8,008 nt of DNA from a virus (IMGVR_UViG_2695420427_000002), one strand, 5' to 3'; shown: positions 1 to 7,881, numbered from the stretch's first letter. Numbers and translations: made by a program. Notes: generated by a model from the sequence alone, not told the origin.

Positions 1-25
1 CCCCCCGACAGACCTGTGCTATCGG

Positions 26-60
26 AAAGAAAAAAGGCCATCAGCAAAACTCTGATGGCC
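26..60 (-). terminator. Rho-independent terminator for minus-strand transcripts (end of the tRNA/late transcript)
   Basis: Perfect 9-bp inverted repeat ggccatcag (36-44) / ctgatggcc (52-60) with a 7-nt loop. On the minus strand the stem is followed by a U-run (plus-strand aaaaaa at 30-35). Confidence 0.55.
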
Positions 61-105
61 TGAATCACCTTTACCAATATTGTATGAAAAAACACGCACG
101 ACTAA

Positions 106-134
106 TTGACAATAATTTTCATTTCCATTAAAAA
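106..134 (+). promoter_or_regulatory. Candidate sigma70 promoter on the plus strand (TTGACA-17-TAAAAA)
   Basis: Consensus -35 TTGACA at 106-111, 17-bp spacer, AT-rich -10 taaaaa at 129-134. No downstream plus-strand CDS; the plus-strand hairpin at 170-235 lies about 35 nt downstream. Confidence 0.25.
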
Positions 135-169
135 AGATCGCGTAGCATTCTTAATTCATGAGGAACTTT

Positions 170-235
170 ACCCGCCAGCAATCTGAGTAGCGAAAGCTGT
201 TCATCCCCAATGTTTTTGCTGGCGGGTCCTTTTTT
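170..235 (+). terminator. Plus-strand terminator-like hairpin with T-run (possible 3' end of a small RNA)
   Basis: Perfect 11-bp inverted repeat acccgccagca (170-180) / tgctggcgggt (217-227) with a 36-nt loop, followed by tttttt at 230-235. A second GC-rich hairpin at about 246-261 is followed by T-rich sequence. Neither is followed by a U-run on the minus strand. Confidence 0.45.
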
Positions 236-674
236 CTACGGTCCTCCTCCCCGGAGGGGGGCATTTCATTATTTTTCTAATCGTTACTGGTGAGAAGGCG
301 GAAGAAAAAGCCAGTTCTTCGCCCCTAAATAACAGCATGATTCCAGTCCATGCAAAATCTGATTTCCAGCTCACACATACCGAGCACTGTACAAAAAACC
401 GCCAACCAAGGCAGTTAAGAGTGTGTTCCCGGGGTTTGCTTAGAATATTTTGTAAGTTGTCCGAAGAGATATTTACAACACCAGAATGATGCATTATCAG
501 TCCCCTGCCAGAGGTTCACTACGTAACCTGACCGACAATGCACCATTCTGGTGCTGAAAAAAGAGCACTGGAACTGCAACAAAACAACATCACAGAACAG
601 GAGATGGTAAGGAGTCAGACATTCCCACACAATATTGTGTCAGTGCAAATAACAACCTTCGTCTCAAATCTCGC

Positions 675-1023: not shown

Positions 1024-1073
1024 ACTCATCTGACCACCAGCACGTTTAACGTCCTGTGCCGTTTTTCAGGTAT

Positions 1074-1096
1074 AAAAAAACCCGCATAAAGCGGGC
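1074..1096 (-). terminator. Short rho-independent terminator just downstream of the Q-position gene (tR'-like position)
   Basis: Inverted repeat cccgc (1081-1085) / gcggg (1091-1095) with loop ataaa. On the minus strand it is followed by seven U (plus-strand A-run 1074-1080). It lies about 80 bp downstream of the stop at 1175-1177. Confidence 0.5.
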
Positions 1097-1174
1097 TCTT
1101 TCAAATGTCCATGTCTGCTATTCGCCTCGCGGTACAGCTTTGCGAAGCGTACAAGAATTGAAGCAGTTTTTACG

Positions 1175-1729
1175 TCAAAAAGCAATAACTTTTTTCTCTA
1201 TACCAAAAGCCATAACCATTGGTTTGTACAAAATAAATTCTGCCACCTTTAGCCAATGCTCAATGCGTCTTTCACAGGTTCTTAAACTCCATTTCGGGTG
1301 TGCATCATTCAGCAGTTCAGCCATTTTGCGTTTGGTCATCCCCCGCCCCTCATACCGTTGCCGAAGGACGCTAATCAATCCTGGATGCTCTGCCAGCACC
1401 TCACTTATGACCCGATCAATACATAACGCCTCTGCATCAGTACAATGCGCCAGCCAGCTCTTTTGCTTACCGTTAATCATATCCCGCAAAAAAGCCTCAA
1501 GTTCAGACTTGTTCAGACCTGCTTTTTTCATCCTCCGGAGCGCCTCGTTAATTGCCGTTTTTGTCAGCTTTTTAGAGGTCAACATCAGGTTAAACATATT
1601 CCCCGTCTTACCGCCACCAATATACGACCAGCGCCCCCACATACGTAGTTTTCCCTGAATCCAGACACTTTCCAGCGTGGTGAGACGAAGGTGTTCTCCG
1701 CTTTTTCCTGTATTCGTTGGGTAAATCAT
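1175..1729 (-). CDS. 184-aa protein at the Q position; putative late-gene regulator/antiterminator by synteny only
   Basis: Start ATG at 1729-1727 is preceded by GAAAGGAGGG 7 nt upstream and overlaps the upstream stop (ATGA at 1726-1729), so the longer 224-aa track ORF is not the real start. It is the last gene before the terminator and tRNA array. No Zn-finger motif recognised, so Q identity is an inference. Confidence 0.6.
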   Translation of the reverse strand: MIYPTNTGKSGEHLRLTTLESVWIQGKLRMWGRWSYIGGGKTGNMFNLMLTSKKLTKTAINEALRRMKKAGLNKSELEAFLRDMINGKQKSWLAHCTDAEALCIDRVISEVLAEHPGLISVLRQRYEGRGMTKRKMAELLNDAHPKWSLRTCERRIEHWLKVAEFILYKPMVMAFGIEKKVIAF

Positions 1730-2016
1730 AAATATCCCTCCTTTCTCCAGATTTCTTGTGTGCGAAAAACACCTTCTGCATGCATCAGGCGTAATTCTTC
1801 TTTGGTGTAATCGCTGGTTTTTACCCGCCCGTCGATTAAATCGTGGCACGAGCTACAGGCAATCGCTGCCTGCATATCGTGTGGCTTTATCGCTGTTCCG
1901 CACGTTCCCGCCAGTCGGTAATGCGCCAGCACAGACGTTTCCGGATCGTGATTGCAGTAGCCAGGAATTCTGACGGTGCACATCTGCCCCCGCGCCGCTT
2001 TACGTAAATCCACCAT
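1726..2016 (-). CDS. 96-aa Cys-rich YbcO-like (DUF1364-type) nin-region protein
   Basis: Four Cys in a C-x7-C ... C-x2-C-H arrangement (CTVRIPGYC ... CSSCH), and the same 96-aa length as E. coli DLP12 YbcO as I recall it. TAATG overlap with the upstream gene at 2014-2018. Confidence 0.6.
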   Translation of the reverse strand: MVDLRKAARGQMCTVRIPGYCNHDPETSVLAHYRLAGTCGTAIKPHDMQAAIACSSCHDLIDGRVKTSDYTKEELRLMHAEGVFRTQEIWRKEGYL

Positions 2017-2615
2017 TACGCAAACTCCAGCAGCTGCGCGGCCACATTTTCGACTTGTTCCGGAGAGGAAAATTTACGGAACAGAATCCAGTTCCACAGC
2101 ACATTCAGAACAGATTTATAAACCTGCTGAAACTCGGTTTCGTCCATATTCGCAAAAGCGATGGATTTTGCCCGACGCCCGCGGCTACCGTCCGGATAAA
2201 AATGTTCGGTGTAAAATCCAGCCTGAATGGTTACCCACTCGCGAAAAGCCTCAAACGACTTTAGCAATGCCGTATCCCGGGTTCTGCGTGTCGCAACTGT
2301 ATTCAGATATTGCTCTGCGGCTTCGCTCAGAGCTGGCGTATGTTCCCGACCTACTGATTCGCACAGGTAATCAACGAAACCAGACAGCAGTTCTCGTTCG
2401 CGAGGCGTGATCGCCCCACCGACCGGAGTCCAGTAATCGAATCCCAGTTGCAGGAGTTTGAAAAAACGCTTGTGGAATGCGTAGTTACGCACACGCTTAA
2501 AGTCTGCGTGTATCCACTCACCTGTTTTGATTTGATGCAGAAAATCGCAACTCTCCGGCGTCGCCGGGAGAAGTAATCCGGAAGAGGTTTGTTTGATCAG
2601 TTGTATATGCGCCAT
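2016..2615 (-). CDS. 199-aa conserved prophage protein of unknown function (copy 1 allele)
   Basis: ATG at 2615-2613 with GGAG-type Shine-Dalgarno upstream (cggagaactacgATG). Translationally coupled to the YbcO-like gene. Present in all three cassette copies. Confidence 0.65.
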   Translation of the reverse strand: MAHIQLIKQTSSGLLLPATPESCDFLHQIKTGEWIHADFKRVRNYAFHKRFFKLLQLGFDYWTPVGGAITPRERELLSGFVDYLCESVGREHTPALSEAAEQYLNTVATRRTRDTALLKSFEAFREWVTIQAGFYTEHFYPDGSRGRRAKSIAFANMDETEFQQVYKSVLNVLWNWILFRKFSSPEQVENVAAQLLEFA

Positions 2616-2662
2616 CGTAGTTCTCCGCTGGCGCAGTAGAATGGGTGTTCAGCCCGTTATGT

Positions 2663-2691
2663 AGTATACCAGAATTAATGCCAATACTAAC
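2663..2691 (-). promoter_or_regulatory. Candidate extended -10 promoter (TGgTATACT) in the unique junction upstream of cassette copy 1
   Basis: Minus-strand TGGTATACT (plus 2663-2671) with a weak -35 (gttagt). Lies within the unique 2616-2782 segment immediately upstream of the copy-1 199-aa gene. Confidence 0.25.
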
Positions 2692-2797
2692 AGGATGCTC
2701 TGACTCGCAATTCATCCAGCAGTTTATCATTTCCCATAATGTCACTTACCCTCATCGGTAAAAAAATTGCCTTTCGACCATAGAAGCAGTTTTTACG

Positions 2798-3352
2798 TCA
2801 AAAAGCAATAACTTTTTTCTCTATACCAAAAGCCATAACCATTGGTTTGTACAAAATAAATTCTGCCACCTTTAGCCAATGCTCAATGCGTCTTTCACAG
2901 GTTCTTAAACTCCATTTCGGGTGTGCATCATTCAGCAGTTCAGCCATTTTGCGTTTGGTCATCCCCCGCCCCTCATACCGTTGCCGAAGGACGCTAATCA
3001 ATCCTGGATGCTCTGCCAGCACCTCACTTATGACCCGATCAATACATAACGCCTCTGCATCAGTACAATGCGCCAGCCAGCTCTTTTGCTTACCGTTAAT
3101 CATATCCCGCAAAAAAGCCTCAAGTTCAGACTTGTTCAGACCTGCTTTTTTCATCCTCCGGAGCGCCTCGTTAATTGCCGTTTTTGTCAGCTTTTTAGAG
3201 GTCAACATCAGGTTAAACATATTCCCCGTCTTACCGCCACCAATATACGACCAGCGCCCCCACATACGTAGTTTTCCCTGAATCCAGACACTTTCCAGCG
3301 TGGTGAGACGAAGGTGTTCTCCGCTTTTTCCTGTATTCGTTGGGTAAATCAT
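2798..3352 (-). CDS. 184-aa Q-position protein, copy 2 (identical protein to copy 1)
   Basis: Identical translation to 1175-1729, same Shine-Dalgarno and ATGA coupling. Here it is followed after 15 bp by the unique junction, not by the terminator and tRNAs. Confidence 0.6.
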   Translation of the reverse strand: MIYPTNTGKSGEHLRLTTLESVWIQGKLRMWGRWSYIGGGKTGNMFNLMLTSKKLTKTAINEALRRMKKAGLNKSELEAFLRDMINGKQKSWLAHCTDAEALCIDRVISEVLAEHPGLISVLRQRYEGRGMTKRKMAELLNDAHPKWSLRTCERRIEHWLKVAEFILYKPMVMAFGIEKKVIAF

Positions 3353-3639
3353 AAATATCCCTCCTTTCTCCAGATTTCTTGTGTGCGAAAAACACCTTCT
3401 GCATGCATCAGGCGTAATTCTTCTTTGGTGTAATCGCTGGTTTTTACCCGCCCGTCGATTAAATCGTGGCACGAGCTACAGGCAATCGCTGCCTGCATAT
3501 CGTGTGGCTTTATCGCTGTTCCGCACGTTCCCGCCAGTCGGTAATGCGCCAGCACAGACGTTTCCGGATCGTGATTGCAGTAGCCAGGAATTCTGACGGT
3601 GCACATCTGCCCCCGCGCCGCTTTACGTAAATCCACCAT
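3349..3639 (-). CDS. YbcO-like 96-aa protein, copy 2
   Basis: Identical translation to 1726-2016. Confidence 0.6.
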   Translation of the reverse strand: MVDLRKAARGQMCTVRIPGYCNHDPETSVLAHYRLAGTCGTAIKPHDMQAAIACSSCHDLIDGRVKTSDYTKEELRLMHAEGVFRTQEIWRKEGYL

Positions 3640-4238
3640 TACGCAAACTCCAGCAGCTGCGCGGCCACATTTTCGACTTGTTCCGGAGAGGAAAATTTAC
3701 GGAACAGAATCCAGTTCCACAGCACATTCAGAACAGATTTATAAACCTGCTGAAACTCGGTTTCGTCCATATTCGCAAACGCGATAGATTTCGCCCGACA
3801 CCCACGGCTACCGTCCGGATAAAAATGCTCGGTGTAAAATCCGGCCTGAATGGCTACCCACTCGCGGAAAGCCTCAAACGACTTTAGCAATGCCGTATCA
3901 CTGGTTCTGCGTGTCGCAACTGTATTCAGATATTGCTCTGCGGCTTCGCTCAGAGCTGGCGTATGTTCCCGGCCTACTGATTCACACAGGTAATCAACGA
4001 AACCGGACACCAGTTTTCGTTCGCGAGGCGTGATCGCCCCACCGACCGGAGTCCAGTAATCGAAACCCAGTTGCAGGAGTTTGAAAAAACGCTTGTGGAA
4101 TGCGTAGTTACACACACGCTTAAAGTCTGCGTGTATCCACTCACCTATTTTGATTTGATGCAGAAAATCGCAACTCTCCGGCGTCGCCGGGAGAAGTAAT
4201 CCGGAAGAGGTTTGTTTGACCAGTTGTATATGTGCCAT
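3639..4238 (-). CDS. 199-aa conserved prophage protein, copy 2 (divergent allele, 7 aa differences)
   Basis: ATG at 4238-4236 with Shine-Dalgarno (ccggagaaagccgATG). The 213-aa track ORF begins at a TTG at 4280 and is probably not the true start. Differs from copies 1 and 3 at T/I, R/C, EL/KV, R/S, T/A and R/C. Confidence 0.65.
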   Translation of the reverse strand: MAHIQLVKQTSSGLLLPATPESCDFLHQIKIGEWIHADFKRVCNYAFHKRFFKLLQLGFDYWTPVGGAITPRERKLVSGFVDYLCESVGREHTPALSEAAEQYLNTVATRRTSDTALLKSFEAFREWVAIQAGFYTEHFYPDGSRGCRAKSIAFANMDETEFQQVYKSVLNVLWNWILFRKFSSPEQVENVAAQLLEFA

Positions 4239-4276
4239 CGGCTTTCTCCGGTGGCACGGTGTTACACAGCAGGAGT

Positions 4277-4564
4277 TCAATCCTGCTCAAGATTGTAGAT
4301 GAGTTTATTCTTCAGCAAAAGCAGAAAACCAGCCTTAAAACCAATCTCTTTCAAAACCCGTAATGATGTGACAAATTCGTCCTCACGCAAAATAAAACCG
4401 TCCGTCAGAAGTCCATTACAAAAATAAAATAACACAGCACCGCTCTTCCTTTGTTGAGATTGCAAACATCTAATGCGGCAATGGCTGACAATCGCTCCAT
4501 TCTCAACGCGCACAGCATAGAGGCCATTTTCACTAAAAATTTCACGCAATTCTTCGATTTTCAT
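4277..4564 (-). CDS. 95-aa hypothetical protein, first gene of the operon (at the position rem occupies in E. coli Qin)
   Basis: ATG at 4564-4562 with GGAAGG about 10 nt upstream and a candidate promoter about 80 bp upstream. Identical second copy at 6275-6562. Function unknown. Confidence 0.5.
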   Translation of the reverse strand: MKIEELREIFSENGLYAVRVENGAIVSHCRIRCLQSQQRKSGAVLFYFCNGLLTDGFILREDEFVTSLRVLKEIGFKAGFLLLLKNKLIYNLEQD

Positions 4565-4645
4565 CTTCAGAATCCTTCCAGATAAATAGCTCTCCCCTGT
4601 TCGGGGTCCATCCCTCTTCTCCCTGCGCGCTACTTAAGTGAGTCG

Positions 4646-4673
4646 ATTCTATCTGCGAAGGTGCGCGAATCAA
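4646..4673 (-). promoter_or_regulatory. Candidate sigma70 promoter for the 95-aa / 199-aa / YbcO-like / Q-position operon (TTGATT-16-TAGAAT)
   Basis: Minus-strand -35 TTGATT (plus 4668-4673), 16-bp spacer, -10 TAGAAT (plus 4646-4651), about 80 bp upstream of the 95-aa gene start. Confidence 0.4.
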
Positions 4674-4693
4674 ATTCACCGGAAATAAACAAC

Positions 4694-4736
4694 AAAAAAC
4701 CCGCCGAAACGCTGAGAGATCACAGCGATGGGCGGG
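4694..4736 (-). terminator. Rho-independent terminator downstream of hok
   Basis: Nested hairpin: outer arms cccgcc (4700-4705) / ggcggg (4731-4736), inner stem cgctg/cagcg. On the minus strand it is followed by six U (plus-strand aaaaaa 4694-4699). A 9-bp GC stem gggcgggga/tccccgccc at 4778-4805 lies in the hok 3' UTR. Confidence 0.55.
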
Positions 4737-4813
4737 TTAAGTGCGGGTGCGTTGAGGATGCCTGACACATCAGAGGTGGGCGGGGATGGGATCAGCTCCC
4801 CGCCCGGTCACTC

Positions 4814-4969
4814 TTACTTCCTGGATTCGTAGTCTACGAAGACAGCGACCTCCGTCTGGCCGGTTCGGATTCGTACCTCACAGAGGTCTTTCCTCGTTAC
4901 CAGTGCCGTCACTATGACGGTTAAACAGATGACGATCAGGGCGATTAACATCGCCTTTTGCTGCTTCAT
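4814..4969 (-). CDS. hok: Hok/Gef-family type I toxin (51 aa), copy lacking its own promoter
   Basis: MKQQKAMLIALIVICLTVIVTALVTRKDLCEVRIRTGQTEVAVFVDYESRK: single transmembrane helix followed by the Hok-family LTRK-LCE-R-R-G-EVA-F motif, close to HokD/RelF as I recall it. Shine-Dalgarno AAGGAG upstream of the ATG at 4969. The track ORF is an in-frame upstream extension to 5026. Confidence 0.85.
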   Translation of the reverse strand: MKQQKAMLIALIVICLTVIVTALVTRKDLCEVRIRTGQTEVAVFVDYESRK

Positions 4970-5047
4970 AGCCTGCTTCTCCTTGCCTTTCGGCATGTAA
5001 GAGGCTAACCTACATGTGCAAAGCATGAAATTGGCCTCAGATTAATG

Positions 5048-5350
5048 TTAAGCGTCTTGCCGGACGCGTAATGTTAACTGGGGCTTTTCTCTATCTGCCT
5101 TTTGGTGTTCATGCCTGAAAAGTTCAGACTTGTTCAGACCTGCTTTTTTCATCCTCCGGAGCGCCTCGTTAATTGCCGTTTTTGTCAGCTTTTTAGAGGT
5201 CAACATCAGGTTAAACATATTCCCCGTCTTACCGCCACCAATATACGACCAGCGCCCCCACATACGTAGTTTTCCCTGAATCCAGACACTTTCCAGCGTG
5301 GTGAGACGAAGGTGTTCTCCGCTTTTTCCTGTATTCGTTGGGTAAATCAT
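5048..5350 (-). pseudogene. Truncated Q-position gene: first 76 codons fused at the repeat junction to the hok leader, giving a 24-aa unrelated tail
   Basis: Identical to the 5' part of 1175-1729 down to about 5120. The translation then diverges (ELFRHEHQKADREKPQLTLRVRQDA) because the sequence beyond 5119 is the end of the neighbouring repeat unit. Confidence 0.75.
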
Positions 5351-5637
5351 AAATATCCCTCCTTTCTCCAGATTTCTTGTGTGCGAAAAACACCTTCTGC
5401 ATGCATCAGGCGTAATTCTTCTTTGGTGTAATCGCTGGTTTTTACCCGCCCGTCGATTAAATCGTGGCACGAGCTACAGGCAATCGCTGCCTGCATATCG
5501 TGTGGCTTTATCGCTGTTCCGCACGTTCCCGCCAGTCGGTAATGCGCCAGCACAGACGTTTCCGGATCGTGATTGCAGTAGCCAGGAATTCTGACGGTGC
5601 ACATCTGCCCCCGCGCCGCTTTACGTAAATCCACCAT
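5347..5637 (-). CDS. YbcO-like 96-aa protein, copy 3
   Basis: Identical translation to 1726-2016. Confidence 0.6.
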   Translation of the reverse strand: MVDLRKAARGQMCTVRIPGYCNHDPETSVLAHYRLAGTCGTAIKPHDMQAAIACSSCHDLIDGRVKTSDYTKEELRLMHAEGVFRTQEIWRKEGYL

Positions 5638-6236
5638 TACGCAAACTCCAGCAGCTGCGCGGCCACATTTTCGACTTGTTCCGGAGAGGAAAATTTACGG
5701 AACAGAATCCAGTTCCACAGCACATTCAGAACAGATTTATAAACCTGCTGAAACTCGGTTTCGTCCATATTCGCAAAAGCGATGGATTTTGCCCGACGCC
5801 CGCGGCTACCGTCCGGATAAAAATGTTCGGTGTAAAATCCAGCCTGAATGGTTACCCACTCGCGAAAAGCCTCAAACGACTTTAGCAATGCCGTATCCCG
5901 GGTTCTGCGTGTCGCAACTGTATTCAGATATTGCTCTGCGGCTTCGCTCAGAGCTGGCGTATGTTCCCGACCTACTGATTCGCACAGGTAATCAACGAAA
6001 CCAGACAGCAGTTCTCGTTCGCGAGGCGTGATCGCCCCACCGACCGGAGTCCAGTAATCGAATCCCAGTTGCAGGAGTTTGAAAAAACGCTTGTGGAATG
6101 CGTAGTTACGCACACGCTTAAAGTCTGCGTGTATCCACTCACCTGTTTTGATTTGATGCAGAAAATCGCAACTCTCCGGCGTCGCCGGGAGAAGTAATCC
6201 GGAAGAGGTTTGTTTGACCAGTTGTATATGTGCCAT
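5637..6236 (-). CDS. 199-aa conserved prophage protein, copy 3 (recombinant allele)
   Basis: The 5' end matches copy 2 (V at residue 7, same upstream sequence) while the body matches copy 1 at all the variable sites. Confidence 0.65.
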   Translation of the reverse strand: MAHIQLVKQTSSGLLLPATPESCDFLHQIKTGEWIHADFKRVRNYAFHKRFFKLLQLGFDYWTPVGGAITPRERELLSGFVDYLCESVGREHTPALSEAAEQYLNTVATRRTRDTALLKSFEAFREWVTIQAGFYTEHFYPDGSRGRRAKSIAFANMDETEFQQVYKSVLNVLWNWILFRKFSSPEQVENVAAQLLEFA

Positions 6237-6274
6237 CGGCTTTCTCCGGTGGCACGGTGTTACACAGCAGGAGT

Positions 6275-6562
6275 TCAATCCTGCTCAAGATTGTAGATGA
6301 GTTTATTCTTCAGCAAAAGCAGAAAACCAGCCTTAAAACCAATCTCTTTCAAAACCCGTAATGATGTGACAAATTCGTCCTCACGCAAAATAAAACCGTC
6401 CGTCAGAAGTCCATTACAAAAATAAAATAACACAGCACCGCTCTTCCTTTGTTGAGATTGCAAACATCTAATGCGGCAATGGCTGACAATCGCTCCATTC
6501 TCAACGCGCACAGCATAGAGGCCATTTTCACTAAAAATTTCACGCAATTCTTCGATTTTCAT
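6275..6562 (-). CDS. 95-aa hypothetical protein, second copy
   Basis: Identical to 4277-4564, with the same Shine-Dalgarno and upstream promoter candidate. Confidence 0.5.
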   Translation of the reverse strand: MKIEELREIFSENGLYAVRVENGAIVSHCRIRCLQSQQRKSGAVLFYFCNGLLTDGFILREDEFVTSLRVLKEIGFKAGFLLLLKNKLIYNLEQD

Positions 6563-6643
6563 CTTCAGAATCCTTCCAGATAAATAGCTCTCCCCTGTTC
6601 GGGGTCCATCCCTCTTCTCCCTGCGCGCTACTTAAGTGAGTCG

Positions 6644-6671
6644 ATTCTATCTGCGAAGGTGCGCGAATCAA
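6644..6671 (-). promoter_or_regulatory. Candidate operon promoter, second copy (TTGATT-16-TAGAAT)
   Basis: Same sequence as 4646-4673 at the 1998-bp offset. Confidence 0.4.
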
Positions 6672-6691
6672 ATTCACCGGAAATAAACAAC

Positions 6692-6811: not shown

Positions 6812-6967
6812 TTACTTCCTGGATTCGTAGTCTACGAAGACAGCGACCTCCGTCTGGCCGGTTCGGATTCGTACCTCACAGAGGTCTTTCCTCGTTACCA
6901 GTGCCGTCACTATGACGGTTAAACAGATGACGATCAGGGCGATTAACATCGCCTTTTGCTGCTTCAT
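6812..6967 (-). CDS. hok: Hok/Gef-family type I toxin (51 aa), copy with its native upstream region
   Basis: Identical to 4814-4969. Its leader extends into unique sequence at 7118-7194 that contains a promoter candidate. Confidence 0.85.
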   Translation of the reverse strand: MKQQKAMLIALIVICLTVIVTALVTRKDLCEVRIRTGQTEVAVFVDYESRK

Positions 6968-7143
6968 AGCCTGCTTCTCCTTGCCTTTCGGCATGTAAGA
7001 GGCTAACCTACATGTGCAAAGCATGAAATTGGCCTCAGATTAATGTTAAGCGTCTTGCCGGACGCGTAATGTTAACTGGGGCTTTTCTCTATCTGCCTTT
7101 TGGTGTTCATGCCTGAAGCAGATAGCCTCAAGCACCCGCAGTC

Positions 7144-7194: not shown

Positions 7195-7881
7195 TCACTC
7201 CTTCTCTTCTTTACCGTAGTGGAGTTGACCAATTTTGATAAGAGGGCGTCCCTGAGATTTGCGGTGTAGATTGGTATCGCGCAGAGAATACACACAGCCA
7301 CAATATTCCTGCTGATAGAATTTTTCGCGCTTGCTGATTTCAATCATACGGGACGAGCCGCCCTGCTTGCGCCAGTTATAATCCCAGTACACCATGCCCG
7401 GATAATGCGCGACGGCTCGCCGCCCACAGTCGTTAACCTGCTGCATATTTTTCCAGCGTGAAATGCCCAGTGAACTGCTGATCACACTGAAACCATTTTC
7501 AGCGGCGTACAGCGCTGTCCGCTCAAAACGCATGTCAAAACACATGGTGCAACGGATCCCTCGTTCGGGCTCCCATTCCATTCCTTTGGCTCGTTCAAAC
7601 CAGTTGTCTGTGTCGTAATCAGCATCAATAAACGGCACGCCGTGTTGTTCAGCAAAGCGAATATTCTCATCCTTACGAATTAAATACTCTTTCTGAGGAT
7701 GAATGTTCGGGTTGTAGAAAAAGATGGTGTAGTCGATTCCCGAGGCCTGAAGCGCCTCCATCACCTCACCGGAACATGGAGCACAGCAAGAGTGCAGTAG
7801 TAGTTTGTTTGCCCCGTTTGGGAGCTCCAATTTGGGCCGTTTGAAATCAGCAACTGTCATAAATATGTTTATTGGGGTCAT
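7195..7881 (-). CDS. queH: QueH-like epoxyqueuosine reductase (DUF208 family), 228 aa
   Basis: Long clean ORF with the Cys-rich HSCCAPCS motif near the N-terminus and a C-terminal CGC motif, which I recognise as the DUF208/QueH signature. No obvious Shine-Dalgarno at either candidate start (7881 or 7860). Confidence 0.6.

Follow-up and report, generated by a model that had tools for sequence, protein, structure and literature searches.

A candidate antisense small RNA gene next to the class II holin of a lambdoid prophage

Results

Organization of the locus

The window, i.e., the whole stretch of 8,008 nucleotides that was analysed (IMGVR_UViG_2695420427_000002), is the late-regulatory region of a lambdoid prophage with the late genes on the minus strand, and its positions 1-700 are present at at least 99% identity in nine E. 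coli genomes. The main features are listed in Table 1. A Q-type antiterminator gene lies upstream of an array of four tRNA genes, and the region of interest (61-290) sits within the ~670-bp gap from this tRNA cargo to the lysis cassette. Its position, downstream of Q and PR' and between cargo and lysis cassette, is that of the moron-site antisense sRNAs. According to the annotation and sequence of locus L001, a class II holin gene begins just outside the window, with its ATG 6 nt to the left of position 1, and in L001 it is followed by lysozyme and spanin genes. Region 61-290 is neither the 3' UTR nor a coding part of a gene crossing the window start, two readings that the initial annotation had considered.

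The holin has a dual-start MYQM motif, and its leader (window 1-30; L001 8985-9030) carries a small stem-loop (CGAUAG..CUGUCG) just ahead of a GGGGGG Shine-Dalgarno sequence, which resembles the structure setting the holin/antiholin start choice in lambda S. A minus-strand terminator had been proposed near 26-60 and was found there, with a stem running 61->35 and then TTTTTTCTTTC. It separates the candidate sRNA gene from the holin, and its stem is mismatched in the CFT073 and plasmid copies, where the holin is lost. Weak matches of generic sRNA models (FopS, MicA, Qrr, and isrD) were observed on the minus strand at 25-121. In the relative L002, positions 6028-6124 (-), which correspond to window ~30-126 (-), gave a sub-threshold Rfam match to SgrS (24.8 bits, gathering score 37; E 1.8e-4 when 1.3 kb was searched) that ends at the pre-holin terminator on the late strand. 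These matches leave room for an additional late-strand RNA terminating at 61->35.

Downstream of tRNA-Gly, the minus strand of 397-562 contains a long inverted repeat (arms 472-502/530-560, 84% complementary), after which comes a minus-strand terminator (416->397); together these would appear to close the tRNA cargo unit. The minus-strand fold of 390-675 has a z of -3.5. On the other side of the tRNAs, the first Q copy is directly followed by a strong terminator hairpin (1069-1148, minus strand; weak isrK and Trp leader matches), which is likely to represent the tR' terminator of a short leader RNA from PR'. A block coding for a Q-type antiterminator (DUF1133), YbcO, and DUF1367 is repeated in tandem, with three copies in 1157-6280. 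Stretches of 300 nt at 1499, 3122, and 5120 are 100% identical (spacings of 1623 and 1998 bp). The Q region may be genuinely triplicated, or the repeats may have arisen in the assembly. Two hok/sok loci are also present on the minus strand (sok 6962-7137 and 4964-5140; hok ORFs 6812-7024 and 4814-5026); one sok scores 117 bits, and the other, which looks degraded, 52 bits, under the gathering score of 59. A homologue of QueH (epoxyqueuosine reductase) is encoded at 7195-7881 (-), in the prophage early/late junction region.

Table 1. Window coordinates of the main features, with the alignment columns that vary among the flank-anchored sequences
Feature	Position	Strand	Variable columns	Basis or remark
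Class II holin 5' leader	1..30	minus		L001 annotation/sequence, fold
Late-strand intrinsic terminator	25..61	minus		10-bp stem 61->35, 7-nt loop, then TTTTTTCTTTC
Conserved mosaic module	35..388			five sequence lineages; similarity ends at ~388-390 on the right and ~21-35 on the left
Upstream part and promoter	74-136		27/63	
Sigma-70-type promoter-like site	106..134	+		-35 TTGACA, 17-nt spacer, -10 TAAAAA (129-134)
-35 hexamer	106-111	+	0/6	
Predicted small RNA, ~95-100 nt	137..236	+		fold; own CM, 125 bits
5' part of the predicted RNA, possible seed region	137-169	+	15/33	22 variants
Hairpin and T-tract	170-235	+	10/66	
Terminator hairpin, outer 12-bp stem	170..227 (170-181/216-227)	+	2/24	inverted-repeat search, folds
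Inner hairpin, 8 bp	184-191/196-203	+	2/16 (stem)	fold; GAAA loop 192-195, two G.U pairs
T6 tract	230..235	+		after the stem and CC (2-nt spacer)
Downstream part	236-322		51/87	
Second G+C hairpin, 9 pairs (6 G-C)	241..262	+	12/22	T-rich interrupted tail ATTTCATTATTTTTC
tRNA-Met, -Arg, -Thr, -Gly array	985->675	minus		ARAGORN
Q-type antiterminator (DUF1133/Phage_antitermQ)	1175-1849	minus		upstream of the tRNAs

Promoter-like site, hairpin, and predicted transcript

The features given in the initial annotation are all present, no more than a few bases away from the positions stated there. On the plus strand, a TTGACA -35 and an A-rich -10 are present at 106-134, as initially annotated. The -35 is perfect. 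The -10 is weak, with matches at four of its six positions and without the T at -7 (position 6), and because of this a consensus promoter scan was silent on the site.

Further downstream, the perfect inverted repeat with T6 that had been described as 11 bp long is present and is perfect, with a length of 12 bp. Its outer arms are 100% complementary, include 8 G-C pairs, and enclose a 34-nt loop in which the inner hairpin forms and the segment AUCCCCAAUGUUU (~203-215) is unpaired in the plus-strand fold. No other perfect inverted repeat in the 8-kb window combines a length of 12 bp or more with a loop of at most 40 nt; any such repeat occurred in 8 of 300 dinucleotide shuffles, and one with a T5 tail, on either strand, in 0 of 300. 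The G+C-rich 12-bp stem, CC, and U6 have the makeup of an intrinsic terminator. Both the length of the loop (34 nt, with an inner hairpin) and the 2-nt spacer are atypical for such terminators, and the terminator scan missed the hairpin because the loop exceeds the 8-nt limit of the scan. The T6 tract was kept in 13 of the 14 distinct variants collected, with T5 in the remaining one (L012).

The promoter-like site and the hairpin-T6 point in the same direction, against the late operon, and they outline a predicted transcript of ~95-100 nt, much as had been proposed. Judging from promoter geometry, its 5' end would be at ~137-142, and its 3' end is predicted within the T-tract. The predicted RNA is perfectly complementary to any late read-through transcript, and RNA 137-236 folds at -30.9 kcal/mol (z = -3.4).

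A second GC hairpin with a T-rich tail had also been annotated. It is present at 241-262, but its tail is interrupted and it is specific to the window lineage, in which the poly-G length varies from G4 to G6; in other lineages the 3' arm is replaced. As it is not conserved in relatives, it is not a feature of the family.

Conservation and strand polarity

Copies of the region were collected by flank anchors only (CTGAATCACCTTTA ... CCCTAAATWAC), because circularity had to be avoided. The anchors retrieved 43 viral and 61 metagenome loci with 106 instances and 22 distinct sequences, the window included, and a 23-nt loop motif was found in all 43 viral and all 61 metagenome loci. The -35 and the length of the spacer were kept in 22 of 22 distinct flank-anchored variants, although an invariant 6-mer inside a region conserved at ~80% is not significant alone. 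Variable columns were far fewer in the hairpin and T-tract than elsewhere (10/66 vs. 93/183; Fisher p=2e-7), and in the 34-nt loop 7 of 34 columns varied. The apparent conservation is inflated by recent spread, since the copies are 83-100% identical and represent only about five lineages, and a pattern of variable 5' and conserved 3' parts is equally expected of a bare terminator. In the conservation and covariation analysis suggested in the initial annotation, the hairpin and T-tract are the most conserved part of the module, and RNAalifold and pair counting found no covariation because the stems are invariant.

With regard to the strand, the T-tract follows the stem on the plus strand only, and no T run comes after the stem on the minus strand. 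The two G.U pairs of the inner hairpin become A.C on the minus strand, where the fold is also less stable (-28.3 kcal/mol, z -2.7). The only two stem changes seen differ in their consequences. G178A, found in plasmids, gives A.C on the plus strand and U.G on the minus strand, and A180G, found in one locus (L057), gives G.U on the plus strand and C.A on the minus strand. In CFT073, Nissle, and the ColV-type plasmids, the plus-strand promoter-like site, the hairpin (intact or with one change), and T6 persist despite deletion of the lysis genes, while mismatches have accumulated in the late-strand terminator 61->35. The polarity of T6, the G.U pairs, the fold, and this persistence favour the plus strand.

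Distribution of the module

The similarity between copies (~35-388) breaks off abruptly on either side and delimits a module of ~350 bp. Five lineages were distinguished: the window type (lineage 1), the XJW9B277/AR_0086 type of intact prophages, in which the module adjoins the same holin (lineage 2), the CFT073/Nissle type (lineage 3), the ColV-type plasmid type, with iss adjacent in the plasmids inspected (lineage 4), and an IMG/VR type (lineage 5, L036). The DNA upstream of 80 close relatives of the holin fell into 17 unrelated clusters, and the module was present in just 2 of the 17; it is therefore a self-contained mosaic unit and not part of the tRNA cargo. The initial description of the region as lying downstream of the tRNAs fails in functional terms, since very different cargo precedes the module in other prophages.

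Of 5426 complete E. coli genomes, 1427 have matches to window 61-300, which in nearly every case show 80-90% identity and which fall at 915 places on chromosomes and 643 on plasmids, with up to four places per genome. The carriers, about a quarter of the complete genomes, include ExPEC lineages (e.g., CFT073, Nissle 1917, IHE3034, and APEC). In PLSDB, 574 plasmids carry the module, 537 of them conjugative; 21 Klebsiella, 17 Salmonella, and 5 Shigella plasmids are among them. In species representatives, the exact core motif was found only in E. coli and Shigella flexneri, and S. flexneri SFBU1023 and E. coli ECMA0423 have two copies of the element each. Two copies in the same orientation (186-208 and 1466-1488, 1280 bp apart) are also present in an IMG/VR contig (L019). 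The module is absent from the phage GenBank collection, save for a 42-nt match at the holin leader, and the element is absent from UTI89 at the DLP12 position. The nmpC-essD region of DLP12 in K-12 (the reported ipeX area) was rejected as a counterpart, as no similarity was found.

In CFT073 (L005), Nissle 1917 (L008), and two plasmids (L006 and L010), the holin and lysozyme genes are deleted and IS elements flank the module. The distance from the module to iss is ~0.5 kb in the two plasmids, and that to papI is ~2.2 kb in CFT073.

Coding potential, known RNA families, and targets

The non-coding status initially given to the region was borne out, with no credible CDS in 1-675 and no Pfam match for the ORFs there. 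In some genomes RefSeq has a 63-aa hypothetical protein over this stretch (L002 6017-6208), and this ORF is broken in the window. The module lineages differ by 1-, 2-, and 3-nt indels, and no ORF is conserved. Protein-coding readings were rejected on these grounds.

The Rfam search proposed for 60-675 brought up no family. Matches of Rfam 15 in 1-675 were at chance level (E<=1 over the window; E<=10 over 1-420), none being to AgvB (RF02702), AsxR (RF02703), STnc100 (RF02076), or Esr41, and over the whole window only the tRNAs and sok pass. No ncRNA is listed in the RefSeq annotation under any match of the module, and at the element PGAP leaves a blank or a spurious ORF. The element was not found in a literature search by sequence strings and topic.

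Possible targets were searched for by k-mer complementarity and RNAduplex against the initiation regions of holin, lysozyme, Q, and iss, and nothing beyond shuffled controls was obtained. A 10-nt match to Q codons 7-10 is at chance level (~1.4 expected). No sponge or anti-sRNA target was found in these searches, and the element showed nothing that would mimic a known sRNA target site.

Discussion

Interpretation of the element and alternatives

Window 106-236 (+) may be an independently transcribed antisense sRNA gene of ~95-100 nt carried as prophage cargo, which is the most likely reading, with chances that we consider to be about even. In this case, the sigma-70 promoter (TTGACA-17 nt-TAAAAA) would be active in the lysogen or plasmid carrier and direct transcription away from the holin, head-on to the Q-dependent late operon. 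The resulting RNA of ~95-100 nt would end at the 12-bp hairpin and U6. By analogy with PasA/PasC and AgvB/AsxR, the conserved 3' hairpin and U-tail would be the terminator and a probable Hfq scaffold. Pairing in trans with host or phage RNAs would fall to the 33 variable nt at the 5' end, perhaps together with the AUCCCCAAU segment left unpaired in the loop. We infer transcription, the 5' end, Hfq dependence, and trans-acting regulation.

It is rather unlikely that the element is a terminator only, in which hairpin-T6 stops antisense transcription from the lysis/iss side from entering tRNA/Q, the TTGACA being incidental and no discrete RNA being made. The terminator is the sole strongly constrained part, the 5' 33 nt vary like the flanks, and the -10 is weak. 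Moreover, genes of the iss/bor type lie on the plus strand to the left in relatives, and the annotators of phage 434 called analogous hairpins just terminators. However, no plus-strand promoter is evident nearer than iss (~2 kb), and the conserved 34-nt loop, with its inner GAAA hairpin and C-rich segment, would be superfluous for a plain terminator. The analogous hairpin of PasA ends a discrete Hfq-stabilised sRNA (PMC8550237).

The uneven substitutions inside the module (p=2e-7) are unexpected under neutral drift, and a coherent promoter-RNA-terminator unit of the same design as in validated sRNAs also argues against the module being a neutral passenger, i.e., a relic hitch-hiking with the holin or iss and conserved merely through recent common ancestry. 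This explanation, which we regard as distinctly unlikely, could draw on the small number of lineages (~five, at 83-100% identity), the lack of covariation, the presence of the module in only 2 of 17 holin-upstream clusters, and the adjacency of iss, a selected virulence gene, in the plasmids inspected.

Slightly less likely again is a function of the 12-bp stem on the minus strand, in the late RNA upstream of the holin, where it could, e.g., be processed by RNase III, affect stability, or belong to a late-strand RNA terminated at 61->35. The stem is perfect on either strand (minus strand -28.3 kcal/mol, z -2.7), and the plasmid change G178A keeps a U.G pair there while it gives A.C on the plus strand; A180G, however, has the opposite effect with C.A on the minus strand, as do the two G.U pairs of the inner hairpin, which are A.C there. 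The invariant T6 would be an A6 before the stem, without a role, and the element persists where the holin and late operon are gone. Weak alignments of generic sRNA models (minus strand, 25-121), the sub-threshold SgrS match in a relative, and a late-strand IGR fragment recorded by RIL-seq at the PasA locus are in line with a late-strand RNA, whereas no minus-strand promoter is conserved and the spacing of the site at 296->268 changes in relatives. A small protein gene, such as the 10-codon plus-strand ORF 158-190 or the 37-codon minus-strand ORF 264->151, is extremely improbable, since ATG 158, although open to TAG 190 in all lineages, has no Shine-Dalgarno sequence, the 63-aa ORF given by RefSeq in some genomes is broken in the window, the minus-strand ORFs shift frame between lineages through the 1-, 2-, and 3-nt indels, and no Pfam matches were found.

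Returning to the antisense sRNA gene, a new family within the known class of antisense prophage sRNAs is plausible. It is possible, but can be put forward only tentatively, that 137-236 (+) is the founding member of an undescribed, possibly Hfq-dependent sRNA family whose variable 5' end rewires the expression of host or virulence genes of lysogens and plasmid carriers, with the RNA acting as a regulator or as a sponge for one core sRNA. Should the RNA be real, it would be a widespread regulator, unannotated and absent from Rfam, in the ExPEC accessory genome and on ColV-type virulence plasmids. The survival of the element beside iss after the loss of the lysis genes would provide a testable link to serum survival and virulence plasmids.

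Comparison with known prophage sRNAs

Lambdoid prophages of EHEC were reported to encode sRNAs antisense to the PR' transcript in the moron cargo region, and a conserved 3' and variable 5' pattern was described for the anti-sRNAs (Tree et al. 2014, PMC4104026). The element has in common with AgvB/AsxR its place in late-region cargo downstream of Q, the antisense orientation to PR', a Rho-independent terminator, and the conserved 3' and variable 5' parts. It differs in the absence of an Rfam match (conserved 3' region of ~42 nt) and in the length of the predicted RNA, which is about twice that of the anti-sRNAs (51-60 nt). Moreover, unlike AgvB/AsxR-type pairs, it is not arranged tail-to-tail with an STnc100-type late-strand sRNA. 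STnc100/PasD (RF02076) has no match in the window, whereas L002 6488-6676 matches with 114.5 bits. L002 6393-6676, directly beyond the part that resembles the window, has a good promoter (TTGCAA-18 nt-TATTAT) for a predicted antisense RNA of ~60 nt with a PapR-like terminator, convergent with STnc100, as in a textbook convergent sRNA pair; the pair itself occupies 6400-6676. In the XJW/AR_0086-type prophages, this STnc100/antisense pair lies further upstream and begins at the end of the module. As the convergent pair is separate, the element is holin-proximal and positionally equivalent to PasA/PasC rather than to AgvB/AsxR.

PapR is an Hfq-dependent sRNA of UPEC UTI89 (Khandige et al. 2015, PMC4546395). 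PapR and the element both occur in prophage regions of ExPEC, antisense to late genes, and the Hfq dependence is that of PapR. In the XJW/AR_0086-type prophages, a short gene with the 3' terminator module of PapR follows the element on its right side at a distance of ~250 nt. Identity of the element with PapR was rejected; the 5' and 3' ends given by the published primers are absent from the window, and the upstream context differs.

That sRNAs occur at comparable prophage positions, as the initial annotation had pointed out, holds most closely for PasA and PasC, which occupy the same slot in the same orientation. Both were validated, PasA being an 85-nt RNA stabilised by Hfq (NC_011601, minus strand, 743499->743415; Pearl Mizrahi et al. 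2021, PMC8550237 Table S6), and they correspond to EcOnc51/52, prophage sRNAs of EPEC/EHEC (PMC8550237; Zhu, Shabalina & Storz 2026 preprint). In E2348/69, PasA is flanked by a cargo gene (SASA esterase) and a class II holin gene, to both of which it is antisense. A TTGACA ends 30 nt ahead of the PasA 5' end, the PasA terminator hairpin (17-nt loop) is followed after 2 nt by U7, and PasA is separated from the holin by a late-strand terminator. The curated record of phage 434 annotates exactly the three hairpins concerned as (antisense) terminators.

Homology between the element and PasA/PasC was rejected at any detectable level by MAFFT, local BLAST, and covariance models (CMs) in both directions. 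Local BLAST gave E ~4 (3.9), the CM of the element (R1) had no match in the PasA/PasC loci (L003 and L004), and that of PasA/PasC (R2, 5 sequences) had none in the window, L001, L002, L005, L006, or L036 at E<=10. The only sequences in common were short motifs, namely TTGACA, GCCAGC..GCTGGC-Un, and a CGAAAG loop. The shared stem GCCAGC..GCTGGC and the CGAAAG loop motif may be taken as only a lead.

The likeness is one of design and place. The sequence features of the element, their polarity, the conservation pattern, and the positional equivalence to PasA/PasC were all observed directly. Like PasA/PasC, the element is placed between late cargo and a class II holin gene and is oriented antisense to the late operon, and its promoter-like site is separated from the holin by a late-strand terminator. 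TTGACA stands ~30 nt ahead of the 5' end, here a predicted one, and the terminator has a large loop, a 2-nt spacer, a U-tract, and a stem starting with GCCAGC; both combine a variable 5' part with a conserved 3' part. The predicted RNA is somewhat longer (~95-100 nt vs. 79-85 nt), and expression and Hfq dependence were shown for the Pas RNAs, whereas for the element they are proposed. Spread on plasmids also differs, Pas genes being reported on only 12 plasmids and the element being found on 574. If the RNA is real, unrelated sRNA genes of a common design would occupy the holin-proximal antisense slot (PasA/PasC in EPEC/EHEC, the element in ExPEC), and the slot itself, not one family, would seem to be a general entry point for horizontally acquired riboregulators.
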